Shown: positions 1 through 64,000, counted from the stretch's first letter. The stretch is DNA of 64,000 bases from an uncultured Candidatus Peribacteria bacterium (GCA_964632395.1 CAZWES010000004.1:120-64119); one strand, 5' to 3'. Notes: generated from the letters alone by a model not told the origin. A program made the numbers and translations.

Positions 1-190
1 TTGGGATCATGCCCCTCCGTATTGGCTGGGAGAGTCGTATCGAAGTACTTTTCATGCAAAAAAAGTACTTCGATACGTCCATCACACAAAGGGTAAGGGG
101 GCATTGATCAAAGAAGAAAATTTTATGACAAATATCACGTATTATGCTGGTGTCCCCTTACCCTTTGTGTGAGTCCACTCAGTATGACGT
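1..190. repeat. Cargo-less nested inverted-repeat element, left end cut by the window edge; same layout as the GIY-YIG cassette at 19588-20167
   Basis: Inner IR GGAGAGTCGTATCGAAGTAC (29-48) / GTACTTCGATACGTCC (65-80) separated by 16 nt. Perfect 18-bp hairpin CACACAAAGGGTAAGGGG (83-100) / CCCCTTACCCTTTGTGTG (154-171). Outer terminus GAGTCCACTCAGTATGACGT (171-190) resembles GGATCCACTCAGCATGACGT at 20148-20167. Confidence 0.6.
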
Positions 191-3400: not shown

Positions 3401-4096
3401 ATGGTAAATCCACTTTCAATTTTCCGGCGTGATAAGGAACAGCTTACGGAAGCAAATAAAGAAGAAATTCATAATGCGATTCACAAATTGATAGCGCTGA
3501 GTACACACGATTACGGATATTATCTTTTTCTCGTTCTCTCGGTCCTTATCACAACAACTGGTCTTTTGCTGGGATCTGCACCGATTATCATTGGAGGAAT
3601 GATAATTGCACCGATTTTGATGCCGCTGCTCTCCTGCGGGCTTGCGTTGTTTTTGCTTGAGGGCAAGGGGATTGTGAGGTCAGTAACCATTATTATTTTA
3701 TCCGTTGTAATTGCGCTGATACTTTCCGCCTCTGTTACTCACATTGCGATTATTACGGATTCTGCACCTTCTTCCATTGATAGTGTTCCGGGAATTATTC
3801 ATCCGGCACTTTATCTGTTGGTTGCGTTTTGCTCGGGGATCGCCGGTACTTTTGCGTTTGTAAAAAAACATCTTTCCTCATCAATTCTTGGAGTGGCGGT
3901 GAGTGCATCACTCTTGCCTCCGCTTTGTGCAGTTGGAATCGGAATTGCGCTCCGCGACGTTTCACTTGTTGAGCGCTCGCAGTGGATATTTCTGATAAAC
4001 GTGGTTGGGATAATAATTGCTGCAAGTATTGTATTTTGGATTCTAGGGTTTCGAAAAGGACGGGAGCTTGAGGAGAAAGCGGTTGAGAACGTGTAA
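3401..4096 (+). CDS. DUF389 / TIGR00271-like hydrophobic-domain membrane protein
   Basis: IIGGMIIAPILMPLLSCGLALFLLEGKG resembles the GAMliaPLmgP core of DUF389. Multiple TM helices. Confidence 0.55.
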   Translation: MVNPLSIFRRDKEQLTEANKEEIHNAIHKLIALSTHDYGYYLFLVLSVLITTTGLLLGSAPIIIGGMIIAPILMPLLSCGLALFLLEGKGIVRSVTIIILSVVIALILSASVTHIAIITDSAPSSIDSVPGIIHPALYLLVAFCSGIAGTFAFVKKHLSSSILGVAVSASLLPPLCAVGIGIALRDVSLVERSQWIFLINVVGIIIAASIVFWILGFRKGRELEEKAVENV

Positions 4097-8443: not shown

Positions 8444-8543
8444 TGGTGGGGGTAGTGTAGCGCATGGTGGCGCGAGCGGTCTCTCACGAGCCTCCATCCT
8501 GGTTACGGTTACGCGCGGTTCGAATCCCGTCGGCGCCATTTTC

Positions 8544-8615
8544 TCCCCGTAGCTCAATTGGTAGAGCGCCGATCTCCAAGTCGGTGGTTGTCGGTTCGAG
8601 ACCGGCCGGGGAGCT
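8544..8615 (+). tRNA. trnW: tRNA-Trp (anticodon CCA) with an anticodon arm one nucleotide short
   Basis: Acceptor CTCCCCG/CGGGGAG. D arm GCTC-AATTGGTA-GAGC. T arm GTCGG-TTCGAGA-CCGGC. Anticodon region CCGAT-CTCCAA-GTCGG. Close to E. coli tRNA-Trp in layout. No encoded CCA. Confidence 0.75.
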
Positions 8616-10047: not shown

Positions 10048-10099
10048 GTGAGGAGAGTATAAGGGAAAATTGAGGGAGGGGAAGGGACTTCCTTAAGGA

Positions 10100-10200
10100 A
10101 ATTCCAAGCACCAAATTCCAAAAGAATTCCAAATCTCAAATAACAAAGCCTTTTGAGATTTGGAATTTGAGATTCTTTTGGTGCTTGGAATTTGGTGCTT
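10100..10200. repeat. About 100-nt imperfect palindrome (family E), downstream of dnaG
   Basis: Arms AAGCACCAAATTCCAAAAGAATTCCAAATCTCAAA / TTTGAGATTTGGAATTTGAGATTCTTTTGGTGCTT. A second copy lies at 17628-17725. Confidence 0.8.
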
Positions 10201-12587: not shown

Positions 12588-15499
12588 TAGACAACAAGAC
12601 TCACCAACTTTCCAGCAACATACACCTCTTTTTTCACGGTTTTTCCGGAAATGTACTTCTGCACGTTCTCGTGAGCTTTTGCCTGCGAAATTGCCTCTTC
12701 TTCGGAAATATCGGCCGGAACCTCCAAATTTGCACGAACTTTGCCGTTTACCTGCACAACCAGTGTGAAGGTGTTGGAGATTAGCTTGGATTCATCATAA
12801 GTTGGCCAGTCGGATTCGATTACGAAGCCTTTGGAACCCGTGAGCTCCCACATTTCCTCGGCGAGGTGGGGGGCGAGGGGGGCGAGAAGTTTGGTAAAAG
12901 TAATTGCAGTTTCTTTTATAACTGATCCTGCTTTTTCCATCTCGTTCAAAAGAATCATCAGTGCGCTGATTGCGGTGTTGAAGTTGAATGTAGAAATATC
13001 ATCAGTTACTTTTTTGATTGTTTGATGGAGCAGGGGAGTCACGGATGATGAATCCTCTTTGGCTGATATTTTTTGTGAATCAGAGAAGTAGGAGTAGATG
13101 CGTTTTACAAAGCGGTCCATGCCTTTTATTCCGCTATCGTTCCAGTCGCCGCCGTGCATGAATGGTCCCATGAACATCAGGTACATCCGGAAAACATCTG
13201 ATCCGTATTTCTCTACAAAGTCATCAGGAGAAACCACATTCCCGCGCTTGCTCATTTTTGAACCCTTGTGCGTTATGAGCCCCTGATGGACCAGGCGCTG
13301 GAATGGTTCCTCTGCTTTTATGTGTCCAAGATCTTTAAGGACCATCGTTACAAAACGTGCGTATATCAGGTGCATGCAGGCGTGCTCGGGACCCCCGATG
13401 TAGAGATCAACAGGCATCCACTTCTTTTCAATACCTTTTGGAATAAATTCTTTTTGGCTGCCTTCCGAGAGAAATCGGAATTGATAGAAGCTGCTGCAGA
13501 CGAATGTGTCCATTGTGTCCACTTCCGGCCGCCAACCCTTTCCGAATATTTTTTCCGTGCGTTCAACAAATTCTTTCGATTGCGCGAGTGGAGATTTTCC
13601 TTTTGGCTTAAATTCAACGTCGGTTGGAAGTTTCCAGGGCAGATGTTTTTCCGGGATCGGATGAGGATTTCCTTCCGGGTCATAGACAATTGGGATAGGT
13701 GCTCCCCAGTAGCGTTGTCGGGAGATGAGCCAATCACGCAGGCGATAAGTTGTTACTCGTTTGCCCCATCCTTTTTCCACAAAGTAATCCATAATTTTTT
13801 CTTTGGCATCCATGATTTCCATGCCATCCAGAAAATCTGAATTTGTCATGGTTCCGGCTTCTTCCTGAACCTGTTCGATGCGTGTGATATCGGAGGTGTC
13901 TCCATCGGGTCCAATCACCACACGAACGACTGGAAGATCGAAAGTTGTTGCGAACTCGAAATCACGCACGTCGTGGCCTGGCACTCCCACAACTGCACCT
14001 GTTCCAAATCCTGCGAGGACAAAGTCGGAAACCCAAATAGGCATTTTCTCCCCATTTAGATTATTGATCGCATAATGCCCGGTAAAAACACCTGTCTTCT
14101 TTTTGCCTTCCTCCTGCCTCTCAAGTTCAGTCTTGTTCATAGACTTTTTGATGTAATCATCAACTTCCTTGTTGTTTCTGGAAACCATACGGGCAAAAGG
14201 ATGTTCAGGTGCTAGGACAACAAAAGTGGCGCCAAAATTGGTATCAGGCCGCGTTGTGAAAGTTGTTATAGTTATCGGTAATTTCGACAGAATTCGCCCA
14301 TTTTCCTCAACATTGCCATTCTTTGGGTTTTGTTGGATGTAATTTAAAACTGATTCAAATTGTTCCAGGTTTGTTACTTCTTCGAAGTGGTTGCCTTTAG
14401 CCCAAACAGGTCCTTGCCTGTCGTACTGTTCGTTGAAATCGTGGGCGCTGCCTCCTTTTAGCTTCCTGACAATATCCTTTTCCAAGTGCCTCCCTTTTTC
14501 AAACGAAATAAGCAAATGAAGGTGTTCCAGCATTGCACATGCCTCATGAAGAATTATGTTATGCCTTTTTGCAACTGCACCGATAATTCTAAGCATAGAA
14601 GATGCGATTTGTGATTTGGAAAACAAATTTTCTCTGTTCTTTGGTTCTATGGTTATGTGAACAGTACGCTTAGTGGGCTGAAGCCCGGTTGATTTCGTAT
14701 CGTTAACCCCGCCCTTAAGGGCGGGGTTAACGCAACTATCGTTATCGGGCTTTAGCCCTTCATCCCAACCTATAACTCCGCGCTTAATACCTTCAATCTC
14801 ATAAATAATATCGATTCCGCGCTTTTTTCCAATCCAGTTTTTCTGCATCAGTTTAGTCTTTTCCGGCCATTCAATTTTTTCAAGGCCTTCAAGCAACTGA
14901 TCGGAATATTTTGTGATCTTCCAATACCACTGTGTTAACGGCTTTTGTACCACTTCGTTATCACACCGCTCACATATTCCATCCCAAACCTGCTCGTTTG
15001 CAAGAACCGTTTGGCAATCCGGGCAAAAGTTCACATTTCCCTCTGAGCGGTATGCAAGATTGGAATTGTACATCTGCAAAAATAGCCACTGTGTCCAGCG
15101 GTAGTATTCGGACTCGGATGTGTTCAGTGTTTTGCTCCAGTCGTATGTGCATCCCATTCGTTTGTATTGCTTAACCATATACTCAACATTTTCCTGAGTC
15201 GAATCGTGCGGGTGCATTTTTTTCTTAATTGCATTGTTCTCCGCGGGCAAACCGAACGCATCAAATCCTATTGGGTGGAGCACGTCCTTCCCGCACATTT
15301 TCATAAAGCGGCTGAACGAATCCGGAGTGGAATACTGGAACCAGTGCCCAACGTGCAGGCGGGATCCGCTTGGGTATGGAAACATAACCAGGCAGTAATA
15401 GGGATTCTTCGCTTTCTTAAGATCAACCTTGTACACACCGGATTCTTCCCAGCGTTTTTGCCATTTGGATTCGATGGTGGAGGGGTCGTAGGTGGGCAT
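12587..15499 (-). CDS. leuS: Leucyl-tRNA synthetase carrying an in-frame insertion of about 165 aa (HUH/Y1 transposase-like domain)
   Basis: PYPSGSRLHVGHW (HIGH), TTRPDTNFGATFVVLAPEHP (CP1 editing domain), GSKMSKRGN (KMSKS) and a C-terminal anticodon-binding region. Uninterrupted 970-aa ORF. Confidence 0.93.
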   Translation of the reverse strand: MPTYDPSTIESKWQKRWEESGVYKVDLKKAKNPYYCLVMFPYPSGSRLHVGHWFQYSTPDSFSRFMKMCGKDVLHPIGFDAFGLPAENNAIKKKMHPHDSTQENVEYMVKQYKRMGCTYDWSKTLNTSESEYYRWTQWLFLQMYNSNLAYRSEGNVNFCPDCQTVLANEQVWDGICERCDNEVVQKPLTQWYWKITKYSDQLLEGLEKIEWPEKTKLMQKNWIGKKRGIDIIYEIEGIKRGVIGWDEGLKPDNDSCVNPALKGGVNDTKSTGLQPTKRTVHITIEPKNRENLFSKSQIASSMLRIIGAVAKRHNIILHEACAMLEHLHLLISFEKGRHLEKDIVRKLKGGSAHDFNEQYDRQGPVWAKGNHFEEVTNLEQFESVLNYIQQNPKNGNVEENGRILSKLPITITTFTTRPDTNFGATFVVLAPEHPFARMVSRNNKEVDDYIKKSMNKTELERQEEGKKKTGVFTGHYAINNLNGEKMPIWVSDFVLAGFGTGAVVGVPGHDVRDFEFATTFDLPVVRVVIGPDGDTSDITRIEQVQEEAGTMTNSDFLDGMEIMDAKEKIMDYFVEKGWGKRVTTYRLRDWLISRQRYWGAPIPIVYDPEGNPHPIPEKHLPWKLPTDVEFKPKGKSPLAQSKEFVERTEKIFGKGWRPEVDTMDTFVCSSFYQFRFLSEGSQKEFIPKGIEKKWMPVDLYIGGPEHACMHLIYARFVTMVLKDLGHIKAEEPFQRLVHQGLITHKGSKMSKRGNVVSPDDFVEKYGSDVFRMYLMFMGPFMHGGDWNDSGIKGMDRFVKRIYSYFSDSQKISAKEDSSSVTPLLHQTIKKVTDDISTFNFNTAISALMILLNEMEKAGSVIKETAITFTKLLAPLAPHLAEEMWELTGSKGFVIESDWPTYDESKLISNTFTLVVQVNGKVRANLEVPADISEEEAISQAKAHENVQKYISGKTVKKEVYVAGKLVSLVV
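14280..14790 (-). mobile_element. In-frame RAYT / IS200-IS605 TnpA-like (HUH Y1 transposase) domain plus REP-like hairpin module embedded in leuS
   Basis: The translation VHITIEPKNRENLF...ILHEACAMLEHLHLLIS...VWAKGNHFEEV...LNYIQQNPKNG has the HUH motif (HLH, 14516-14524) and the catalytic-Tyr motif Y-I-x-x-N-P (Tyr codon 14339-14341). It lies between the LeuRS segments IEGIKRG and ITTFTTRPDT. Confidence 0.75.
14675..14758. repeat. 84-nt three-hairpin module 1, inside the leuS coding sequence
   Basis: GGGCTGAAGCCC, 15 nt, the perfect 30-nt palindrome GTTAACCCCGCCCTTAAGGGCGGGGTTAAC (14702-14731), 15 nt, GGGCTTTAGCCC. An adjacent half-site TAACTCCGCGCTTAA lies at 14772-14786. Confidence 0.9.
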
Positions 15500-15523: not shown

Positions 15524-15607
15524 GGGCTAAAGCCCGTATTTAAAAAGCACGTTAACTCCGCGCTTAAGCGCGGAGTTAACGTAACTGTCGTTGTTGGGCT
15601 TTAGCCC
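15524..15607. repeat. 84-nt three-hairpin module 2, 25 nt upstream of the leuS start codon
   Basis: GGGCTAAAGCCC, 15 nt, the perfect 30-nt palindrome GTTAACTCCGCGCTTAAGCGCGGAGTTAAC (15551-15580), 15 nt, GGGCTTTAGCCC. Same spacing as module 1. Followed by the hairpin CCAGCGGAAT-tt-ATTCCGCTGG (15611-15632). Confidence 0.9.
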
Positions 15608-16173: not shown

Positions 16174-17625
16174 ATGGCTCCACACATGCCCAAACTCCCC
16201 ACCGTCGCCATTGTCGGCCGCCCGAACACAGGAAAATCCACGCTATTCAACCGCCTCATCGGATCGCGTCGTGCAATCGTCAGCGATATTCCGGGAACAA
16301 CGCGTGACCCCGTCGTCCAAAGAGTCGAAGGCGAAGAGGTTGATTATTTGTTGATGGACACAGGTGGAATGGGTGGCGGCACACGCGATCAGGATTTTGA
16401 AGATGATGTTGCGTCGCAATCACTCATTGCGCTTGAACATGCGGATCTCATACTCTTCCTTGTCAACAGTCGTGAGGAACTTACCTCATCTGATTTTGAA
16501 GTTGTGGATGCACTGCGAAAAAAACGCAAGCGTCACGTTTCTGTTTTTCTTGTGATAACAAAGTGTGATGATCTGCAAAAAATGGAAGAGGCGCTGCCTA
16601 AGTTTTTTGAGCTCGGAATTTCCGATGATGTTTTTGCTGTGAGTGCGGCTCATAGGCTTGGGATGGATGAATTGGAGGAAGCGGTTGAGGAGAGACTTTT
16701 GGAAATGCATTTTGGGGAGGATTGCTCTTTTCGAGCGAGCATCACAGACGCGCCTCTCGACTCGTCGCTATCAGCTAACGCTTCGAGCTCCTCGCTCGAG
16801 GAGAGCGTCTGTGATGCGAGTCGAGAAACAATTCCAAAGGTTGCAATAGTCGGAAGACCGAATGTCGGGAAGAGCTCACTCATCAATGCGTTGATGCCGG
16901 AGCCGCAGAGGAAGGTTCAATCGAGATTGACGAGTGATGTGCCGGGGACAACGCGTGATACGACGGATACGGTGCTCAGATCACATGGTCAGGAATTTCT
17001 TTTTTTGGATACGGCGGGTTTGAAGCGTCGTAAAAATGTCAGAGAAGATGTTGAGGTGTATGCGATCATCAGAACACTGCAGGCGATTGAGGATGCAGAT
17101 GTCACCGTCCTCGTGCTTGATGCTACAGAGGAGATTGGGAGGCAGGATAAACGCATTGCATCGCTTGCGATTGCGCGTGGGAGCGGATTGGTTCTGCTTG
17201 TGAACAAAACTGATCTTCTTTCGGAGGGAGAAAAGCAGGCGTTTCAACGTCAAGTGGATATCAATTTCCCGTTCTGCAAATGGGCTCCGGTTCTTTATAC
17301 ATCAGCCGTAACTCGTGAGAATCTACCAAAGCTCTTTGATTTGATATTGGTCATCGCGGGAAATCGTGCACAGCGAGTGGAGACTGCTGCATTGAATAGA
17401 TGGTTTCGTGATCTCGTAGCAGCTTCGCAACCGAAAGGAGTTGGTGGCCTGAGTGTGAAAGCAAAATACATCACGCAGGCGGATGTTTGCCCGCCGACAT
17501 TCGTGTTGTTTTTGAATGATCCGAAGCGACTTCATTTTTCCTCGATCAGATTTTTTGAGAATAAAATGCGGGAGACTTTTTCACTGGAGGGGACGCCTGT
17601 CAGATGGGTTAAAAAATCGAACTAA
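16174..17625 (+). CDS. der: Ribosome-associated GTPase Der/EngA
   Basis: Two tandem GTPase domains (GRPNTGKST...DTGG; GRPNVGKSS...DTAG...NKTD) and a KH-like C-terminus. The inter-domain linker contains a palindromic insert. Confidence 0.92.
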   Translation: MAPHMPKLPTVAIVGRPNTGKSTLFNRLIGSRRAIVSDIPGTTRDPVVQRVEGEEVDYLLMDTGGMGGGTRDQDFEDDVASQSLIALEHADLILFLVNSREELTSSDFEVVDALRKKRKRHVSVFLVITKCDDLQKMEEALPKFFELGISDDVFAVSAAHRLGMDELEEAVEERLLEMHFGEDCSFRASITDAPLDSSLSANASSSSLEESVCDASRETIPKVAIVGRPNVGKSSLINALMPEPQRKVQSRLTSDVPGTTRDTTDTVLRSHGQEFLFLDTAGLKRRKNVREDVEVYAIIRTLQAIEDADVTVLVLDATEEIGRQDKRIASLAIARGSGLVLLVNKTDLLSEGEKQAFQRQVDINFPFCKWAPVLYTSAVTRENLPKLFDLILVIAGNRAQRVETAALNRWFRDLVAASQPKGVGGLSVKAKYITQADVCPPTFVLFLNDPKRLHFSSIRFFENKMRETFSLEGTPVRWVKKSN

Positions 17626-17627
17626 AC

Positions 17628-17725
17628 ACCAAGCACCAAATTCCAAAAGAATCTCAAATTCCAAATCTCAAACGGTTTTGGAATTTGAGTTTTGCAATTC
17701 TTTTGGTGCTTGGGATTTGGGATTT
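17628..17725. repeat. About 100-nt imperfect palindrome (family E) between convergent genes
   Basis: CACCAAGCACCAAATTCCAAAAGAATCTCAAATTCCAAATCTCAAA cgg TTTTGGAATTTGAG...TTCTTTTGGTGCTTGG. Homologous to 10100-10200. Plausible bidirectional terminator. Confidence 0.8.
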
Positions 17726-19587: not shown

Positions 19588-20167
19588 ACGTCATGCTGAG
19601 TGGATCCCCCAATTTAAGAAGGGGGCACCAGTTTGGTTGTTTGATGTTATTCATATGATACGATTCTACTCCTTTGCCCCCCTCTTAAATTGGGGAGAGA
19701 CGTATCGAAGCACACTTTTTAACTAAATAATATGACAAAGCGCACATTCACCGTTTATATGCTCCGTTGCTCTGATGGCAGCTACTACACAGGAATGACC
19801 AGCAATCTTGAGAATCGGCTTCAGGAGCATGACAGTGGAAAGTTTCCTGATTCATATACTCATGAACTAAGGCCTGTTGATTTAGTATTTTCCCATACAT
19901 TTGATAATACGTATGACGCAATTTTATGGGAGAGAAAAATAAAAGGATGGAGCAAAAAGAAAAAAGAAGCTCTTATTAAAGAAGATTGGGAAGCTATTCA
20001 GAAACTTTCCAAGAAGAGGAATTTTAAACGTAAACGGTGAATGTGCTTCGATACGTCTCTCCTAGCCGGTATGGAGGGGCATAAATCATGACCAGACGAT
20101 ATTTAAAAAAATGCAAACTCAAACTGGAGCCCCTCCATACCGGCTAGGGATCCACTCAGCATGACGT
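19588..20167. mobile_element. 580-bp nested inverted-repeat cassette carrying a GIY-YIG nuclease gene
   Basis: Outer 20-bp IR ACGTCATGCTGAGTGGATCC (19588-19607) / GGATCCACTCAGCATGACGT (20148-20167). Inner perfect 20-bp IR GGAGAGACGTATCGAAGCAC (19694-19713) / GTGCTTCGATACGTCTCTCC (20043-20062). One long hairpin sits between the outer and inner IR on each side. Confidence 0.7.
19732..20040 (+). CDS. GIY-YIG nuclease family protein (small, UPF0213/YhbQ-like)
   Basis: FTVYMLRCSDGSYYTGMTSNLENRLQEH and WERKIKGWS give the GIY...YIG, Arg and Glu elements of the GIY-YIG fold. Basic C-terminal tail. Confidence 0.85.
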   Translation: MTKRTFTVYMLRCSDGSYYTGMTSNLENRLQEHDSGKFPDSYTHELRPVDLVFSHTFDNTYDAILWERKIKGWSKKKKEALIKEDWEAIQKLSKKRNFKRKR

Positions 20168-22629: not shown

Positions 22630-22728
22630 GAGCCGCAGCCACACTTCGGCCCGGCTCAGCACGGGCTGCGGGCTGCTCTGCGTGTGGAAATAATTCCAAA
22701 GCGCAGAGCGCCCTTCCACGGGCGTGGC
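22630..22728. repeat. Family B palindromic repeat, copy 1
   Basis: Core GCTGCTCTGCGTGTGGAAATAATTCCAAAGCGCAGAGCGCCC flanked by GCCGCAGCC... / ...GGGCGTGGC. Homologous to 26479-26556, 48901-48976 and 57248-57325. Confidence 0.85.
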
Positions 22729-22754
22729 TTGGGGAAACGGTATCTGGGTGCAGG

Positions 22755-23789
22755 CTAGAAAGACGGTGGCTGCGAAATTAAGGATTTATAAATATTTGCC
22801 GTCTCCTCCGCCATCCTCTCCCACGAAAATCCCTTCGCATGTTCCATAGCTTTCTCGCGATCAGGTGGAGATGAAAGCGCTTGTTTGATGCCATTTGATA
22901 CTCCTTCCACGGTTGGCTGCACAAGAATTGCATTGCCTCCTGCAATCTCCGGGATGCTTGTTCTGTTTGATGCAACCACTGGGCAGCCGCATGCCATTGC
23001 CTCCAGGATTGGCAGGCCGAAGCCTTCATATAGCGAAGGTAGTATGAAGCAGGAGGCGGCGGAATAGATTGTGGGGAGATCTGCATCATCAACATTTCCG
23101 CCTGTGACCAACACCAACTCCCAACCTTCTGGGCATGCATCAACCAACGTCTGAACATTCTTATGCTCCTTGCATGCACCTACATACAAAAGGAATTGCT
23201 CCAGCAGCTGATATTTTTCACGGACTCTTTTGATATCTTCATCCGATCTCGGATAAAAATCCTCTGAGACTCCTTCGTAAATCACGCTCATTTTTGATCG
23301 GACATCTTCACCATATGTTTTTGCAATATCATCAGCGGTCGAATTACTCACTGTGATGATGTGTTTCGATTTCCTGATGGCATGTTTCATCAGCATTTTG
23401 TATGCAATCCGTTTTGGCAGCGTTGCTTGATTCGGATAATGATGGAGGATCAAATCATGGATTGTTGTGATGAACAGAACGGGACACTTCAGTGGGACGT
23501 TGAAGTGGGGAACGTGGAGCAGATCAATTTTGGATTTTCGGATAATTTTTGGAAATTCGATTTGTTCGCGCAGCGAATAATGGCTGATTGATAATGGATA
23601 ATGGATAATTCGGTCACCTTGAGTGGAGTCGAGTCCGTGATTTGCATTTTTTGGTAGGAAGAGGACGTAGTTCCAGGGGTCATCGCGTTTTGTGAGGTTT
23701 AGGACGAGTTCGCGTGTGTAGCGGCCGATGCCGGAGCGGGTTCCTGCAAAGCGACAGTCGATGCCGATGGTGTATCCTTTATCGGTCAT
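22755..23789 (-). CDS. Glycosyltransferase family 1 (GT4-type)
   Basis: EGFGLPILEAMACGCPVVAS motif. The N-terminus MTDKGYTIGIDCRF is typical. The start is placed at Met 23789; the ORF is open to 23915. Confidence 0.85.
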   Translation of the reverse strand: MTDKGYTIGIDCRFAGTRSGIGRYTRELVLNLTKRDDPWNYVLFLPKNANHGLDSTQGDRIIHYPLSISHYSLREQIEFPKIIRKSKIDLLHVPHFNVPLKCPVLFITTIHDLILHHYPNQATLPKRIAYKMLMKHAIRKSKHIITVSNSTADDIAKTYGEDVRSKMSVIYEGVSEDFYPRSDEDIKRVREKYQLLEQFLLYVGACKEHKNVQTLVDACPEGWELVLVTGGNVDDADLPTIYSAASCFILPSLYEGFGLPILEAMACGCPVVASNRTSIPEIAGGNAILVQPTVEGVSNGIKQALSSPPDREKAMEHAKGFSWERMAEETANIYKSLISQPPSF

Positions 23790-26313: not shown

Positions 26314-26478
26314 GTTTTATAGAAATATGGTATCATTTTGATGTCTTTCCTGGGATGGAATCCTTTAAGGGGTCCATTCCGGTGCTGTTGTAACAGCCGA
26401 CGAGAAGTCCCTCTGGCGCCCATCAAGGGACTCTCTTTGTCGAGGTGCTGAGTTAATGATTGAGCATATAGTGTTATT

Positions 26479-26556
26479 CCAGGTCGCGCCCACGGAGGGG
26501 CGCTCTGCGTTTTGGAATTATTTCAACACGCAGAGCAGCCTTCCACGGCTGCGGCC
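26479..26556. repeat. Family B palindromic repeat, copy 2 (opposite orientation)
   Basis: CGCGCCCACGGAGGGGCGCTCTGCGTTTTGGAATTATTTCAACACGCAGAGCAGCCTTCCACGGCTGCGGCC. Confidence 0.85.
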
Positions 26557-26648
26557 AATGGAAAAACCAACTGGGTGCGGTCGTACAACACTGGGTGCGG
26601 TAATACAACACTCGCTCAACGTCCTCAGATACGCTATAATAGTAGGTA

Positions 26649-30157: not shown

Positions 30158-30228
30158 AAACTGCCTCCGAGATCGCTTGAGTCATGCTTTTTGAGGTATA
30201 GACTGAATGCGTTATTCCCACAATCAGC

Positions 30229-31572
30229 ATGACCACTGCAACTGCTCAAACTCCATCCAAAACAGCCGATACAGGCCAAAAGGCTACGCCGTACACACGG
30301 TTCCTCACAAACCTGCATGAGGTTCTGGATCACATGGAGGCAAGCCGGGATGTGAGGAATATTTTTGAGTCTCCGCAGAATGTTCACAAAAAGGAGGTAG
30401 AGATCACACGTGATGATGGGACATCTTCAACTTACCCCGCATTCCGTGTTCAGTTCAACAACGCACGCGGGCCGTATAAAGGTGGAATCCGATTTCATCC
30501 TGATGCGGATTTGGAAGAGGTAAAAGCGCTTGCAGCATTGATGGCTATCAAAACTGCTGTGGTCGGGATTCCATTCGGTGGTGCAAAGGGCGGAGTTCAG
30601 TTCAATCCAAAAGAACTGAGTCTAAAAGAACTCGAGCGACTCTCGCGTGGTTATATGCGTGTGATGCAGGGTGCGCTTGGGCCGTATGTTGATTGTCCTG
30701 CGCCGGACGTGAACACCAATGCAATGATCATGGGATGGATGCGTGATGAGTACGAACACATGACAGGGGAGTTCGCGCCGGGAGTCGTCACCGGAAAACC
30801 ACTGGAATACGGCGGATCAATCGGACGTGATACTGCAACGGCGCGTGGAGGATTCTTCGTTTTGGAAGAAGTATTGGAAAGGATGGCGCTTGATCCAAAG
30901 GATCAGCGTGTTGCCATCCAGGGATTTGGGAATGCGGGTGCAGCAATTGCGCAGTATCTGCATGACCGCGGTTGCACGATTGTTGCAATCTCCGATTCGC
31001 GCGGGGGCGTGTATAGCGAGGAGGGGATTGATCCGGTTCGAATTATGAAGTACAAAAAGAAGACGGGGCAGGTTCGTGGATATTATTGCGAGGGATCTGT
31101 GTGTGATGTTGAGAGGCTGAATCTGGATAGTGCGGAACTCATAAACAATGAGGAACTTATCACCTGCGATTGCGATATTCTTATTCCTGCAGCTCTGGAT
31201 AACGTCATCACAAAAGAGAATGCAGGTGATATCAAAGCCAAGATAATACTTGAACTTGCAAACGGGCCCACGACTCCGGAGGCGGATAAAATTCTGGACG
31301 AGAAGAAAGTGAGAGTCATCCCTGATGTTCTTGCGAATGCAGGGGGGGTCACAGTTAGCTACTTCGAGTGGACACAAGGCAGGAGCGGAGAGCAGTGGAC
31401 TGCAAATAGGGTTGATGACGAGCTCAAACGGATCATTTTAGCTGCATATCGTGAGGTTCGTCGTGAAGCGCGTCGTGAGGGCTTAAGCTACAGAAAGGCT
31501 GCGTATCTGATTGGGGTCAAGAAGATGGCGGAGACGATGAAGGCACGCGGTTGGTGTGGCAACGGGTGTTAG
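30229..31572 (+). CDS. gdhA: Glutamate dehydrogenase
   Basis: Catalytic-Lys region IPFGGAKGGVQF. Dinucleotide fold AIQGFGNAGAAIAQ. Confidence 0.92.
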   Translation: MTTATAQTPSKTADTGQKATPYTRFLTNLHEVLDHMEASRDVRNIFESPQNVHKKEVEITRDDGTSSTYPAFRVQFNNARGPYKGGIRFHPDADLEEVKALAALMAIKTAVVGIPFGGAKGGVQFNPKELSLKELERLSRGYMRVMQGALGPYVDCPAPDVNTNAMIMGWMRDEYEHMTGEFAPGVVTGKPLEYGGSIGRDTATARGGFFVLEEVLERMALDPKDQRVAIQGFGNAGAAIAQYLHDRGCTIVAISDSRGGVYSEEGIDPVRIMKYKKKTGQVRGYYCEGSVCDVERLNLDSAELINNEELITCDCDILIPAALDNVITKENAGDIKAKIILELANGPTTPEADKILDEKKVRVIPDVLANAGGVTVSYFEWTQGRSGEQWTANRVDDELKRIILAAYREVRREARREGLSYRKAAYLIGVKKMAETMKARGWCGNGC

Positions 31573-32554: not shown

Positions 32555-32755
32555 GGTGGCGCGGGTGCATCCGGTTGTTTTGCATGAATGAGATACGGTT
32601 TGTGATTTTAAATGTGTCCGAAACGGCAGGATCGCTCGCGCTGGGACAAGCATCTCTGACACAAATCTTCGTTCAAGTATTCTTGTCCCTGCGCGAGCGG
32701 TCATGTGCCAGTCGCGCTCCGCGCTCCGGCACATGACACACCCGCGCCACCTTAA
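32551..32755. repeat. 205-nt compound inverted-repeat structure filling the trxB / DMT-transporter intergenic region
   Basis: Outer perfect 17-bp IR TTAAGGTGGCGCGGGTG (32551-32567) / CACCCGCGCCACCTTAA (32739-32755). Inner 18-bp IR at 32633-32650 / 32682-32699 with 1 mismatch. 10-bp IR GTCATGTGCC / GGCACATGAC at 32700-32737. Confidence 0.85.
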
Positions 32756-39584: not shown

Positions 39585-41018
39585 ATGAGTGTATCGCAGT
39601 GCAAGACCCTCTGGACTTCCATACTCAAAAAGCTTGAGCCCACGCTCCAACGCGCGATGATGATCACTTGGTTCAAGGATACCGCGGTTTTGGGCAAAGA
39701 TGAGGGTCAGCTCATCGTAGGTTTGCCCCTCCCCATGTTTTTGAACTGGCATCTGGAGCACTACAAGGATCAAATCCTAAAAGTTGCAAAGGAACTTGAT
39801 CCTTCGATTGAGAAAATCGTTTATCACGTGGATCTTTCGCTGCAGGATGATGAGACGCGCGCGGTGGATATCCTAAAACTCTTTCCGGAGAAGAGAAGTA
39901 GGAAGCTCCCGAACAAACCGGAAGTCAAATTAGGGGAAGGCCTTAAAAGCAAGATGCTCAACCCGCGTTATACGCTGGATAGTTTTGTTGTTGGGCCGAG
40001 CACCCGCCTTGCACATGCCGCCGCACTCTCCATTGCTGCACAGCCGGGAGGAAAGTATAACCCATTCTTTATATACGGCGGAGTTGGTCTTGGCAAAACT
40101 CATCTTTTGCAGGCTGTTGGGAATGAGCTACTCAAAAATGATCCGAGTGCAACGGTTCTTTATACAACTTCGGAAGAATTTACGAATCAGGTTGTGGAAG
40201 CTATCAAGCATCAAAAAATGGAGCAGCTCAGAAGAAAATATCGTCAGGTAGATATGCTGATCATTGATGACATCCAATTCTTTGCAGGAAAAGAACGAAC
40301 ACAGGAAGAGTTCTTCCACACGTTTAATACGCTTCTGGAAGCCAGAAAACAGGTCGTCATCAGTTCCGATCGCACTCCGCAGGAGCTACATGACACAGTT
40401 CAGGATCGCCTACGTTCGCGGTTTGAGCGCGGCATGGTCGCAGATGTAAAAATGCCCGATTACGAAACGCGTCTTGCAATTCTCACGGAACGTGCAAAGG
40501 AATACGAGATAATCTTTGATCACAAGGTACTCGCGTTCATTGCAAAATATGCAACCGATAGCGTGCGCAGTCTGGAAGGCATACTCATGCAGGCCGTTGC
40601 GCAGTATGATTTGGAAAAACAAACGCCAACGGAAAATTCGATTGCGGAAATTATGTGCAAGCTCTCGCGCGATCCCGGTAAGGCAGAGGAAGATCCGGTA
40701 GGGTTTGATGTTCCTGCAAAAAGAGCGCCACGCATCGAAGACATTCTGGAAAATGTAAGCGGTTATTACTCCATTCCAATTCAGGAGATGGTTGGAACGT
40801 CCCGCACCCGCGACACACTCATCCCGCGGCAGATTGCAATGTATCTCTGTTCCAAGCATCTTAGGATCAGCCTGCAAAAACTTGGCGAGCGCTTCTCCGG
40901 TCGCGATCACTCAACAGTCATCCATTCCGTTAAAAAGATCAAAAATAAGATTAATGAGGATCCGGGGTTGATACGGGAGATTAATGCGATTGAGAGGGAG
41001 TTGGGGGTGGGGGTTTAG
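39585..41018 (+). CDS. dnaA: Chromosomal replication initiator protein DnaA
   Basis: Walker A GGVGLGKTHLL, Walker B LIIDDIQF, domain IV signature ERFSGRDHSTVIHSVKKI. Confidence 0.95.
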   Translation: MSVSQCKTLWTSILKKLEPTLQRAMMITWFKDTAVLGKDEGQLIVGLPLPMFLNWHLEHYKDQILKVAKELDPSIEKIVYHVDLSLQDDETRAVDILKLFPEKRSRKLPNKPEVKLGEGLKSKMLNPRYTLDSFVVGPSTRLAHAAALSIAAQPGGKYNPFFIYGGVGLGKTHLLQAVGNELLKNDPSATVLYTTSEEFTNQVVEAIKHQKMEQLRRKYRQVDMLIIDDIQFFAGKERTQEEFFHTFNTLLEARKQVVISSDRTPQELHDTVQDRLRSRFERGMVADVKMPDYETRLAILTERAKEYEIIFDHKVLAFIAKYATDSVRSLEGILMQAVAQYDLEKQTPTENSIAEIMCKLSRDPGKAEEDPVGFDVPAKRAPRIEDILENVSGYYSIPIQEMVGTSRTRDTLIPRQIAMYLCSKHLRISLQKLGERFSGRDHSTVIHSVKKIKNKINEDPGLIREINAIERELGVGV

Positions 41019-41421: not shown

Positions 41422-41556
41422 GGCGAGCGCTTCTCCGGTCGCGATCACTCCACAGTCATCCATTCCGTTAAAAAGATCAAAAACAAGATTAATGAGGATC
41501 CGGGGTTGATACGGGAGATTAATGCGATTGAGAGGGGGTTGGGGGTGGTGGCTTAG
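41422..41556 (+). pseudogene. Duplicate of the last 135 nt of dnaA (45 codons plus stop)
   Basis: 130/135 identical to 40884-41018, including the TAG stop. Confidence 0.9.
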
Positions 41557-48859: not shown

Positions 48860-48900
48860 GTGAACGCCCGCGTTGACTCCACGCAGTTGCCGTTTTCACA

Positions 48901-48976
48901 AGCCGCGCCCTCGGAGGGGCGCTCTGCGTTTTGGAATTATTTCCACACGCAGAGCAGCCTTCCACGGCTGCGGCTC
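48901..48976. repeat. Family B palindromic repeat, copy 3
   Basis: About 93% identical to copy 2. Lies between convergent genes. Confidence 0.85.
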
Positions 48977-49047
48977 GGGGAAAATCGACTGGCTGAAGTT
49001 TGAAAACTACAGACACACCCACTCCATCTCGGTAGTAAGAGAGCATG

Positions 49048-57198: not shown

Positions 57199-57247
57199 TG
57201 GCGCGGACGTATCCGTTTCCACAAGTCGTGCCCGTTATCGTTTCCTC

Positions 57248-57325
57248 GAGCCGCAGCCACGGAGGGCTGCTCTGCGTGTGTAAAAAATTACAAAGCGCAG
57301 AGCGCCCCTCCGCGGGCGCGGCCTG
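57248..57325. repeat. Family B palindromic repeat, copy 4
   Basis: GAGCCGCAGCCACGGAGGGCTGCTCTGCGTGTGTAAAAAATTACAAAGCGCAGAGCGCCCCTCCGCGGGCGCGGCC. An extra GGGCGCGGCCTGG lies at 57340-57352. Confidence 0.85.
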
Positions 57326-57380
57326 GAAAAAATGTAACGGGCGCGGCCTGGACTCAGCAATTTGATGTATCCTTTACGCT

Positions 57381-58761: not shown

Positions 58762-60645
58762 ATGCAAATCCGCAACTTTTGCATCATCGCGCACGTTGAT
58801 CATGGCAAATCCACTCTGGCGGATCGGTTGCTTGAGCTTACGGGAACAGTTGAATCGCGGGATATGAAGGAGCAGATACTCGATACCATGGATCTGGAGC
58901 GCGAGCGCGGCATCACGATCAAGCTGCAGCCGGTTAGGATGATGTATGAAGTGTCATCCCTCGATACGCGCCTCGATACGCCTCGCTCCGCTCGGCTACT
59001 CGGCGCTACTCGGGATGACACGGCTTATCAACTCAATCTGATAGATACCCCCGGACACACAGACTTCAGATATGAAGTCAGTCGATCACTCGCAGCGGTT
59101 GAGGGTGCAATTCTGCTCATAGATGCTTCGCAGGGAGTGCAGGCGCAGACTCTCGCAACTCTTCATTCCGCAATGGAGCATGACCTCAAGATCATTCCTG
59201 TTTTGAATAAGATTGATCTGCCTGCAGCGGATGTTCCGCGAGTCATGCGTGAGGTTACAAAATTGCTTGGGTGTTCTGAGGATGAAGTGCTTTCGATTTC
59301 TGCAAAGGATGGGACAGGGGTGGAGGGGGTGTTGGAGGCGGTCGTTTCAAAAATACCGGGACCGTCAGATTCTTCCAAGTCCTCGACCAGAGCTCTAATC
59401 TTCGATGCCAATGCAGATCCCTATCGCGGTGTGGTTGCTTATGTTCGAGTGATGGAAGGTGAGTTCAAAAGAGGGGATGCTGCGCATCTACTTGGCTCCA
59501 AAAAGCAGATTACGATTTCGGAAGTCGGGATGTTTACACCCGATTACGAAGCAACCGATACTCTTTCTGCGGGTGAGATTGGGTACATAATCACAGGACT
59601 AAAAGACGTTTCCGAGGCTAGAGTCGGTGACACGTTCGCGTCATCTCCAGGTCTTGATCCGCTTCCAGGTTACAGAGTGATCGAACCAATGGTTTTTGCA
59701 GGGCTTTATCCAACAAATCCTGATGATTTGCCCAAACTTCGTGAAGCGCTTGAGAAACTTCAGTTGAACGATGCATCTTTAACGGTTGAGCCTGAGCAAA
59801 ACACTGCACTCGGGAATGGCTTCCGTTGCGGGTTTTTGGGATTGCTTCACCTGGATATTGTGCAGGAACGGCTTGAGCGTGAGGAGGGTTGCAGCCTAAT
59901 CGTTACAGCGCCAAGCGTGACTTATGAAGTTGTGCTTCAGTCCAAAAGCCCTGCATCGGTCGTGCGATCAAGTCTATTAAAACCTGATGAGAAGAGTGTT
60001 GCCCTGATCAGCAACCCCGCAGACTTTCCGGATAGAACTCACATCAAGGCGGTGCGTGAGCCTTGGGTCAAATTGGAAATCGTCTGCCCAAGTGAAAGCG
60101 TTGGTGCGATTATGCAGATGGTGCAGGAGCGGCGCGGCACTTACGAGTCATTGGAATACCTGGAGGAGGGGACTTCCTTAATCCATTTTGAGGTTCCGCT
60201 TTCGGGCATTGTCCATGACTTTTTCGATCGTCTTAAATCCATAACTTCCGGCTACGGCTCCATGAGCTACGAACTACTCGAGTTCCGGGAAGGTGATCTC
60301 ATCAAAATTGATATGCTGCTAATCGGCGAATCTGTGGATGCCTTGAGCACCATAGTTCATAAATCAGAAGCGCATACCGTGGGTGCAAAGATTTGTAGGA
60401 AGTTGAAGGAAGTCATTCCGCGCCAGCAGTATCAAGTCCCGATTCAGGCTGCGATCGGCGGCAAGATAATAGCGCGTGAAACATTGTCAGCGCTGCGCAA
60501 AGATGTAACGGCTAAGCTTTATGGGGGGGATAGGACGAGGAAGGATAAGCTTTTGAAAAAGCAGAAGAAGGGTAAAGATAGGCTAAAAGCTGTGGGGAAG
60601 ATTGTGTTGCCACAGGAGGCGTTTCTTTCAGTTCTGGAGAGGTGA
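58762..60645 (+). CDS. lepA: Elongation factor 4 (LepA) with a palindromic in-frame insert in the G domain
   Basis: AHVDHGKST, DTPGH, NKIDL, and the C-terminal LepA-specific region ...RKDVTAKLYGGDRTRKDKLLKKQKKGK. Confidence 0.95.
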   Translation: MQIRNFCIIAHVDHGKSTLADRLLELTGTVESRDMKEQILDTMDLERERGITIKLQPVRMMYEVSSLDTRLDTPRSARLLGATRDDTAYQLNLIDTPGHTDFRYEVSRSLAAVEGAILLIDASQGVQAQTLATLHSAMEHDLKIIPVLNKIDLPAADVPRVMREVTKLLGCSEDEVLSISAKDGTGVEGVLEAVVSKIPGPSDSSKSSTRALIFDANADPYRGVVAYVRVMEGEFKRGDAAHLLGSKKQITISEVGMFTPDYEATDTLSAGEIGYIITGLKDVSEARVGDTFASSPGLDPLPGYRVIEPMVFAGLYPTNPDDLPKLREALEKLQLNDASLTVEPEQNTALGNGFRCGFLGLLHLDIVQERLEREEGCSLIVTAPSVTYEVVLQSKSPASVVRSSLLKPDEKSVALISNPADFPDRTHIKAVREPWVKLEIVCPSESVGAIMQMVQERRGTYESLEYLEEGTSLIHFEVPLSGIVHDFFDRLKSITSGYGSMSYELLEFREGDLIKIDMLLIGESVDALSTIVHKSEAHTVGAKICRKLKEVIPRQQYQVPIQAAIGGKIIARETLSALRKDVTAKLYGGDRTRKDKLLKKQKKGKDRLKAVGKIVLPQEAFLSVLER

Positions 60646-61956: not shown

Positions 61957-62126
61957 GTGTCATGCTGAGCGTAGCGCAAGCATCCGATAAGGATGCGAAG
62001 CGCGGAGACGAAGCATATACTCGTGGATGCTTCGTCTCCGCCCTCCGCTACGCTCCGGGCTCCGCTCAGCATGACACGGCCAGTCCGCAGACGAAGCATT
62101 AATTCGGACTCCGCTCAGCATGACAC
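61957..62126. repeat. GTCATGCTGAGCG-family compound palindromic repeat
   Basis: GTGTCATGCTGAGCGTAGCG (61957-61976) ... CGCTACGCTCCGGGCTCCGCTCAGCATGACAC (62047-62077). Inner 14-bp IR CGGAGACGAAGCAT / ATGCTTCGTCTCCG (62003-62040). A second terminus CTCCGCTCAGCATGACAC lies at 62109-62126. Confidence 0.88.
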
Positions 62127-63400: not shown

Positions 63401-64000
63401 AAGAAGCAATCATCGCCGGGCTGGATGAAGCGGGAAGGGGGTGCCTTGCGGGGCCTGTTGTTGCGGGGGCGTGTGTTGTGGAGGTGGAAACGTGTCGTCC
63501 TTCGTCTCCGTGGCAGCTGTGTCATGCTGAGCGGAGCCCGGAGCGTAGCGGAGGGCGGAGACGAAGCACGACCAGCTGCCGCTCCGCTCAGGATGACACG
63601 TTTCCCATTATCACAGACTCAAAAAAGATGACTGAAGAGCAGCGAAACTCATCCTTCATCTTCATCAAAAAGAATTTTCCATGTGGAATTGGAGTTGCAC
63701 CTGCTTCTTACGTTGATGAGCACGGCATTCTTGGAGCCACGGAGCTTGCGATGCATCAGGCGTTATTTGAGCTTGAAAAAATTATCAAACCAACTTACTT
63801 GCTGATAGATGGCCGGGATCACTTTTGGTTTGATGTTCCTCATTCCTCAATAATCCGTGGTGACGAGAAGGAGCTTTGCATCGCGGCAGCCTCTATCCTT
63901 GCTAAAGTCACACGTGACAGGCTTATGGTGGAGTATGACATGGAATATCCAGGATATGGCTTTGCAGAGCATAAAGGGTATGGGACGGATTTTCATCGAA
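63397..64000 (+). CDS. rnhB: Ribonuclease HII (3' end beyond window) with in-frame palindromic repeat insertion
   Basis: Own translation from ATG 63397 (ATGA overlap with the murE stop): GLDEAGRGCLAGPVVAGA, DSKKMTEEQR, IAAASILAKVTRD, YGFAEHKGYGT. This ORF is not in the supplied track because it runs off the window. Confidence 0.88.
   Translation, partial: MKEAIIAGLDEAGRGCLAGPVVAGACVVEVETCRPSSPWQLCHAERSPERSGGRRRSTTSCRSAQDDTFPIITDSKKMTEEQRNSSFIFIKKNFPCGIGVAPASYVDEHGILGATELAMHQALFELEKIIKPTYLLIDGRDHFWFDVPHSSIIRGDEKELCIAAASILAKVTRDRLMVEYDMEYPGYGFAEHKGYGTDFHR

Follow-up and report, generated by a model that had tools for sequence, protein, structure and literature searches.

The DNA analysed here, called the window throughout, is a stretch of 64,000 nucleotides from an uncultured Candidatus Peribacteria bacterium (GCA_964632395.1, CAZWES010000004.1:120-64119), and our subject is a 580-bp block at 19588-20167 in which a 102-aa open reading frame (ORF) for a GIY-YIG nuclease is enclosed by inverted repeats (IRs). 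A preliminary description of the window had proposed nested IRs, two hairpins and this ORF, and every part is present where it had been placed, the outer and inner IRs both being perfect (21/21). On either side of the cassette is a minus-strand gene: one encodes a conserved 232-aa protein and the other a type IV secretion system (T4SS)-pilin-like protein; the named relatives of both flanking-gene proteins are from the Peregrinibacteria/Peribacteria, within the candidate phyla radiation (CPR). The GIY-YIG gene is the sole ORF of the cassette, and no transposase ORF was found in or beside it. A scan for promoters and terminators, the loop of the first hairpin included, found no sigma-70-like site. 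The layout recalls that of the recently described Ssn nucleases (Chenal et al., 2025, Nat Commun 16:2388, PMC11893778), and its parts are listed here in window coordinates.

19588-19608 / 20147-20167: outer IR, 21/21
19588..19608 (+): left arm of the outer IR, with the tag and the 5' half of the putative left recognition stem; homology to the relatives L007 and L008 begins here
19588..19714 (+): left unit U, 127 nt, comprising the tag ACGTCA, TG-CTGAG, a linker, hairpin HP1, a linker, GTAT and CGAAG-CA
19607..19695 (+): hairpin HP1 (clamp), arms 19607-19627 / 19675-19695, 95% complementary, stem of about 20 bp, loop of 47 nt
19694-19714 / 20042-20062: inner IR, 21/21
19694..19714 (+): left arm of the inner IR, GTAT-CGAAG-CAC, the 3' half of the putative left recognition stem
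19732..20040 (+): ORF, single-domain GIY-YIG nuclease gene, Ssn-like and UPF0213-related, 102 aa
19742-19757 / 20031-20046: extra 16-nt IR joining ORF start to ORF end, which prolongs the inner stem over the start codon region
20042..20167 (-): right unit U, 126 nt, laid out as the left unit, with hairpin HP2 as its clamp
20061-20080 / 20129-20148: hairpin HP2 (clamp), 20/20, loop of 48 nt, different in sequence from HP1

The repeat unit and the protein it encloses

The arrangement is simpler than the nested picture suggests: the gene is bordered on each side by a unit of 127 nt, U, the two copies being inverted, and the layout of U is ACGTCATG-CTGAG-TGGATCC-(hairpin)-GGAGAGAC-GTAT-CGAAG-CAC. 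Each unit thus carries ACGTCA as its 5' tag, followed by a short stem that contains a tandem G.A mismatch (TGCTGAG / CGAAGCA) and by a loop of about 100 nt with a 20-bp clamp hairpin inside it. The outer and inner IRs exist because two such units face each other. The same holds for the four-way junction into which a single strand of the cassette is predicted to fold, its helices adjoining with gaps of 0-1 nt and its calculated energy being -122 kcal/mol, against -58.5 +/- 4.5 for shuffled sequences (z = -14). The nested structure of the preliminary description therefore stands as an arrangement, but a functional cruciform is unsupported: it is an automatic product of two inverted units, no selection on outer-to-outer pairing is seen and the covarying pairs lie within each unit. 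When a single unit is folded, an ACGTC/GACGT pairing is predicted as well, which is not conserved in relatives, and the 16-nt IR at the ORF start is kept in L007 and partly in L008.

An alignment of seven units brings out the pairs under constraint. In it 97% of the cells pair, both sides have changed in 15 of 25 pairs, and the observed score was reached by none of 500 shuffles. Across loops of 20-103 nt, the dinucleotide preceding CTGAG pairs with the one following CGAAG, and this half-stem occurs as TG:CA, TA:TA, CC:GG, TC:GA, GT:AC and TT:AA, L008 having a G.T intermediate; in a third subtype of the repeat, described below, CTGAG/CGAAG has become CCGAG/CGAGG, so that a T-A pair beside the tandem G.A is now C-G while the tandem G.A itself stays. 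The clamp stems, in which both sides have changed in 14 of 20 pairs, are fully different between copies and all Watson-Crick, with zero wobble pairs in 140 cells, and their loops keep a fixed length of 47-49 nt. In the HP1 loop lies a conserved 14-nt block, CATATGATACGATT, found solely in the hairpin upstream of the ORF, in all three copies with cargo (the window, L007 and L008). Taken together, each end of the cassette reads as a tagged, putative recognition stem with tandem G.A, whose expanded loop is shut by a clamp of free sequence. A search of the window for targets of the clamp arms in trans found none.

The 102-aa protein matches the Pfam GIY-YIG domain over residues 7-78 (E=3.3e-16), carries no second domain, and retains the catalytic residues Y9, Y19, R29, H33 and E67, which are invariant or nearly so among 30 homologues; its profile also matches PDB 1zg2, a UPF0213 protein, at E=3.9e-23. 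With a dN/dS of 0.06-0.07 and a dS of about 1.2, like that of the neighbouring gene, it is a long-maintained functional gene rather than a decaying one. Searches of PADLOC and NCBIfam gave no match, and in phage and plasmid collections we found distant homologues only; identity to YazA is 35-38%. By architecture, catalytic residues and repeat-gene-repeat layout the protein appears Ssn-like, short of a demonstrated Ssn.

Repeats in the window and beside homologous genes

The repeat is not confined to the cassette. With up to one mismatch, GTCATGCTGAG occurs 10 times in the window, against 1.3 occurrences expected, and the copies at a distance from the cassette fall into the following groups.

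1..190: cargo-less dimer of two inverted U units, back to back around a 16-nt centre, cut by the window start
61957..62126: cluster of the second subtype, GTGTCATG-CTGAG-CGGAGC...GA-CGAAG-CA, three tagged units
63519..63599 (region 63478-63600): dimer of the second subtype (GTGTCATGCTGAG-type), in frame within the RNase HII gene
58950..59021 (-): third subtype, GTGTCATC-CCGAG...GTAT-CGAGG, with the GTAT-CGAGG part duplicated

Inverted dimers are thus found at 1-190, 61957-62126 and 63519-63599, three places that the preliminary description had already connected with the cassette and that do hold genuine relatives of its repeat. The left clamp of the 1-190 dimer is a relative of HP2, from which it differs by four compensatory double transitions. 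Tags read ACGTC in the cassette and GTGTC in the other subtypes. The shorter forms that had been proposed at 30181-30235 and 32700-32737 are weak, sharing with the repeat only GTCATG and a palindrome and lacking the CTGAG/CGAAG core. The in-frame dimer in the RNase HII gene adds about 40 residues (EVETCRPSSPWQLCHAERSPERSGGRRRSTTSCRSAQDDTF) to the protein, and the Pfam RNase_HII match is split into two stretches.

The association of gene and repeat extends far beyond this genome. The protein has hundreds of relatives, and from GTDB species genomes we took 80 loci that span Bacteroidota, Alpha-, Beta-, Gamma- and Deltaproteobacteria, Chloroflexota, Nitrospirota, Patescibacteria and others. At most loci the best inverted repeat between upstream and downstream sequence is a simple form of the hairpin, usually in inverted orientation, as in TGTCATC-CTGAG-CCTGT-CGAAG-GAT or CCGTTCGCC-CTGAG-CTTGT-CGAAG-GGCGAACGG. 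These simple relatives have ATCCTGAG/CGAAGGAT stems, loops of 5-6 nt and the two G.A mismatches. Counts of the association were made on 59 loci of 6 kb each (354 kb in all), with the hairpin defined as CTGAG-N3-14-CGAAG. A hairpin lies within 300 nt of the gene at 45 of the 59 loci and within 500 nt on one or more sides at 47; the first 250 nt hold 113 matches, compared with 1-4 per 250-nt bin past 1 kb and 6 in shuffles. The preliminary description had named, as a result that would refute it, GIY-YIG paralogues that are never flanked by such repeats; on the contrary, hairpins stand within 500 nt on both sides at 36 of the 59 loci, and no gene other than that for the GIY-YIG protein lies between them consistently in many phyla. 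A (Y)GT(T)CA tag is conserved on the 5' side of the hairpin, outside the stem, and 105 of 156 hairpins near homologues carry it in the form YGT(T)CR.

A metagenome scan with GTCATRCTGAG-N85-115-CGTATCGAAG returned no second exact unit of the window type, only related CPR units and about 10 chance matches in coding DNA. Groundwater CPR contigs do contain units with clamp hairpins, some of them nested in another's clamp loop: in eight CPR-like metagenome contigs (L012, L013, L016, L021, L022 and L027-L029) a whole inverted unit sits inside a clamp loop, with nesting up to three deep and each level bordered by a perfect short palindromic stem. Such nesting suggests insertion into hairpin tips.

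Presence, absence and orientation of the block in related genomes

Three comparisons allow the block to be followed as a unit. In L007 the cassette is present at 79% nucleotide and 84% amino acid identity, downstream of an unrelated gene and within unrelated flanks, and homology stops on both sides at the ACGTCA tags and outer IRs. In L116 the 232-aa neighbour is 94% identical, with just 25 nt between it and the pilin-like gene, and this site holds neither the cassette nor the repeat arms; three more distant relatives are also without the cassette. L008 is syntenic, with flanks 83-88% identical at the nucleotide level, and has the cassette at the same site, inverted with respect to the flanks, with HP1 conserved and HP2 replaced. 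Since the three genomes are about equidistant, at least two events have to be assumed, namely a gain or loss and an inversion or second insertion. Judged from these alignments, the 580-bp block appears to be mobile as one unit, being absent, inverted or relocated between genomes.

The boundary of the element falls at 19588 or 1-3 nt before it. The preliminary description had proposed that insertion sites be compared for target duplications; at the compared sites none is seen, nor any other direct repeat or conserved flank around the block, the flanks being just A-rich, with a weak palindrome (ACAAA/TTTGT) in those of a single site. Two further genomes show related features at or near this place. 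L117 has no cassette at the syntenic site yet contains GTCAnnCTGAG-tagged repeats (3462-3538 and 4699), two of them within the range of a LigT-like gene. In L118 (2361-2500) another palindromic insert (TCTTCGAGCGA...TCGCTCGAAGA) occupies the intergenic site that holds the cassette in the window, and given this insert the site may be a recurrent target.

The window also holds repeats of other kinds. Unrelated 93-nt palindromic repeats are present in four copies of 60-88% identity, in both orientations (22646-22738, 26473-26565, 48892-48984 and 57240-57332), and more palindromic or AT-rich families (AAATTCCAAG..., CGTTAACCCCGCCC... and ATAATTGATAAT...) lie at 10099-10200 and 17624-17725; at 14675-14758 and 15550-15607; and at 23576, 31596, 35719, 39431 and 42535. 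Given these further families, the small genome is unusually repeat-rich. A 135-nt direct repeat of 96% identity has its copies 538 nt apart (40884-41018 and 41422-41556). The tRNA gene at 8543-8614 (Rfam, 51.5 bits) is reported by ARAGORN with an undetermined anticodon, '(cc)', and its anticodon loop may be unusual.

Interpretation and relation to known systems

Literature searches for the repeat sequence, or for GIY-YIG together with REPIN, RAYT or MITE, found nothing; a broader search led to the Ssn paper. There, SsnA of N. meningitidis is described as a 94-aa single-domain GIY-YIG protein (CDD cd10448) with catalytic residues Y6, Y17 and E64, which binds the hairpin repeat NTS (CGTCATTCCCGCGMAVGCGGGAATCYRG, starting with CGTCA) as single-stranded DNA (ssDNA) and in one polarity, leaving RNA and double-stranded DNA (dsDNA) unbound, and cuts a few nucleotides upstream of it, the bases just 5' of the palindrome controlling cutting (Chenal et al., 2025). 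SsnA tolerates loss or replacement of the NTS loop and also its extension by a complementary stem, and Ssn homologues of other species cut their own flanking repeats. An "Ssn-related motif" (SRM) is found near 71% of the homologous genes on at least one side and near 42% on both, and SRM and Ssn occur together in 81% of repeat-rich genomes. The authors noted that the repeat-gene-repeat order resembles an insertion sequence (IS) and likened it to IS200/IS605 and to repetitive extragenic palindromes (REPs); they presented the Ssn as the first site-specific nucleases that cut ssDNA only, reported a role of SsnA in transformation in Neisseria, stated the role of Ssn beyond Neisseria as unknown, and did not show mobility (Chenal et al., 2025). 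A second precedent is the superfamily of REPs tagged with CGTC (or TGTC/CCTC), among them the Neisseria dRS3, which have 8-9-bp stems opening with A-T pairs and loops of 4-5 nt, form mainly inverted dimers and include in-frame copies within genes and dimers within palindromes, and for which a dedicated enzyme was not found (Di Nocera et al., 2013, BMC Genomics 14:522, PMC3733652).

Set against these precedents, the cassette is probably (at about 0.7) an IS-like unit of the Ssn kind, in which a GIY-YIG endonuclease gene is bracketed by inverted hairpin repeats that its enzyme recognises. This is in essence what the preliminary description had suggested, an autonomous member of a hairpin-repeat family analogous to RAYT/REP, with a GIY-YIG nuclease that could act on ssDNA hairpins, and the comparative data agree with that analogy through the bracketed homologues, the insertion polymorphism and the cargo-less dimer. 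Its further suggestion of a candidate nuclease-repeat system also matches the data, but the kind had already been demonstrated biochemically by Chenal et al. (2025). By analogy with the Ssn enzymes, binding of the protein would be expected only to a unit folded on ssDNA and only in the tag-first polarity, with cleavage a few nucleotides 5' of the tag. As both units face inward, the left one on the top strand and the right one on the bottom strand, the top strand would be cut just outside 19588 and the bottom strand just outside 20167, and these predicted positions coincide with the ends of the block as seen when the window is compared with L007 and L116. Cargo-less dimers such as that at 1-190, and the other repeat subtypes, would then be non-autonomous partners. 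Both the ssDNA-specific cleavage by the 102-aa protein and its part as the driver of block movement are what we infer from these parallels.

Several observations weigh against this account. The sole solved relatives of the 102-aa protein are UPF0213 proteins, whose function is unknown. Such repeats are absent from the surroundings of distant homologues on Legionella and Vibrio plasmids and of the S. paeninsulae copy, and these homologues therefore give no link from this clade to the biochemically tested Ssn. The published SRM pattern, HGTCWYN(0-2)YYVSBRHN(0-5)WNVSBRGN(0-2)RNCYNB, which recognised NTS in a control, has 0 matches in the window and 3 in the 354 kb around homologues, the A of CTGAG breaking its position S; its failure near relatives means that the clade pairs with a repeat class other than the biochemically tested one. 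There is also one gene copy in 64 kb, with a dS equal to the neighbour's, which fits a long-resident and possibly domesticated gene equally well. Finally, a GIY-YIG hydrolase alone does not explain integration. GIY-YIG enzymes are hydrolases, and to our knowledge none has strand-transfer activity; with a nuclease incapable of it, host replication or repair must contribute to joining the block at its new site. We regard as unlikely the stronger proposal that the block is an active, autonomous ssDNA transposon with the GIY-YIG nuclease as its only protein, and its clamped split site a natural form of DNA-guided two-piece cleavage.

It is possible, if on balance improbable, that nuclease and dispersed hairpins form a resident, domesticated host system that serves a cellular ssDNA task, such as trimming incoming transforming DNA, and that the differences between genomes stem, with the same modest likelihood, from deletion, from inversion between the 21-bp IRs and from recombination among repeat copies. 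Strong purifying selection at the neighbour's dS, as for a long-term vertical resident, the single gene copy and the Neisseria SsnA precedent in transformation all suit such a system; the difference between the window and L008 could be an in-situ inversion, and the exchange of HP2 fits recombination among copies. What it accommodates poorly is the behaviour of the block as a whole, which is missing with its repeats from the 25-nt site of L116 and which in L007 has unrelated surroundings, the homology being lost exactly at the tags, while repeats in frame inside genes and nested in each other behave as inserting DNA. A resident role in ssDNA processing is a live alternative that is compatible with the IS-like reading and does not exclude it. 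That another enzyme encoded elsewhere, HUH/RAYT-like or some other transposase, moves the block we consider unlikely. The GIY-YIG protein would then be a passenger or helper, like TnpB, which in IS200/IS605 is not the transposase. The hydrolytic chemistry, without known strand transfer, speaks for such a division of labour, as do the hairpin ends and the lack of a target duplication, which resemble HUH-type ssDNA elements; however, the GIY-YIG gene is the one gene kept between the repeats across phyla, no transposase ORF accompanies the cassette, and the 5' tag is unlike the GTAG of RAYT-associated REPs.

Homing would explain other aspects of the locus. A free-standing homing endonuclease gene might cut empty dimers or allelic sites and be copied by double-strand-break repair through the repeat arms, and indeed one dimer of these arms carries no cargo, the inner hairpin has the ORF within its loop, and palindromic arms would permit either orientation, as in L008 and the window. 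The empty site of L116, however, lacks the arms too, so that the unit gained or lost is arms plus gene and not the gene alone. The protein moreover has no DNA-binding domain of the kind found in GIY-YIG homing enzymes, and the characterised relatives of this kind leave dsDNA uncut (Chenal et al., 2025), all of which makes homing very unlikely. Least credible is an element acting at the RNA level, that is, a structured mRNA or regulatory RNA, a ribozyme or an intron enclosing the ORF. The very stable single-strand fold, the G.T pairs that L033 and L008 have on the ORF-sense strand and the inner stem that spans the start region could be read in its favour, but the units are mirror images with tag-first polarity on opposite strands, occur also without an ORF and inside coding genes, and have clamp stems without any wobble pair, and SsnA does not bind RNA (Chenal et al., 2025). 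Rfam covariance models gave nothing relevant at gathering score, and with the limit raised to an E of 10 they gave chance microRNA-like hairpins only; with no relevant match, we ruled out an intron, a ribozyme or a catalogued RNA.

The kind of gene and hairpin repeat that we favour here, an IS-like unit related to Ssn, is already published (Ssn in 2025, CGTC-REPs in 2013). New are the occurrence in a CPR bacterium, a repeat of the G.A class that the published motif does not cover, the split and clamped putative recognition site, and the comparative evidence of mobility. The tandem-G.A class is captured neither by the SRM pattern nor by the 2013 definition: that survey dropped palindromes whose stems had two or more mismatches (Di Nocera et al., 2013), and would therefore have excluded it, and CPR genomes were outside its coverage. 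A large branch of the protein family, in Bacteroidota, Pseudomonadota, Chloroflexota, Nitrospirota and CPR, is thus paired with a hairpin class that escapes the SRM pattern, and there are therefore more candidate nuclease-site pairs for ssDNA tools than have been catalogued. A natural recognition site with its halves about 100 nt apart and a clamp of free sequence would mean that the split-site design used in vitro also occurs in nature. With an empty site, an inverted copy, a relocated copy and no target duplication, the IS-like hypothesis becomes testable, and the role of Ssn outside Neisseria and the origin of the repeats form the context to which the locus contributes. Were the block indeed a GIY-YIG ssDNA transposon, it would add a third enzyme class for mobile DNA with hairpin ends, beside IS200/IS605 and REP/RAYT, and would provide a natural form of the two-piece cleavage that has so far been artificial for SsnA, in which the clamp arms could direct cutting in trans.

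In comparison with Ssn, the locus shares a single-domain GIY-YIG protein of about 100 aa, within the 90-150 aa or so of that family, a gene between inverted hairpin repeats in an IS-like layout, dispersed copies, and a directional 5' tag, (C)GTCA, followed by a stem that begins with an A-T pair; the tolerance of SsnA for an altered or extended loop finds a parallel in the expanded loop described here. It differs in the tandem G.A of its repeats (CTGAG/CGAAG), which puts them outside the SRM pattern, in the loop of about 100 nt with a hypervariable clamp, in its CPR host, and in the documented mobility of the block. With the CGTC-REPs it shares the 5' CGTC/TGTC tag, inverted dimers, an in-frame copy (in the RNase HII gene) and dimers in palindromic targets. 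The simple relatives, with stems that begin with A-T pairs and loops of 4-6 nt, are close to CGTC-REPs, but their stems have two G.A mismatches, whereas the cassette units have a loop of about 100 nt and their first A unpaired.

The resemblance to REP/REPIN-RAYT (TnpA-REP) and IS200/IS605 lies in the nuclease gene between inverted hairpin repeats, the non-autonomous dimers, the presumed recognition of a single-strand hairpin, the absence of a target duplication and, typically, one gene copy per genome. The enzyme here, however, is a GIY-YIG hydrolase and not an HUH (Y1) tyrosine transposase, and the tag is GTCA where RAYT-associated REPs have GTAG. The GIY-YIG homing endonucleases (I-TevI, Seg) differ by a separate DNA-binding domain, which the protein described here does not have. 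The UPF0213 proteins (YhbQ/YazA; PDB 1zg2 and 1ywl), whose function is unknown, have the fold and motifs in common with the 102-aa protein, and the distant plasmid homologues examined stand without flanking repeats.

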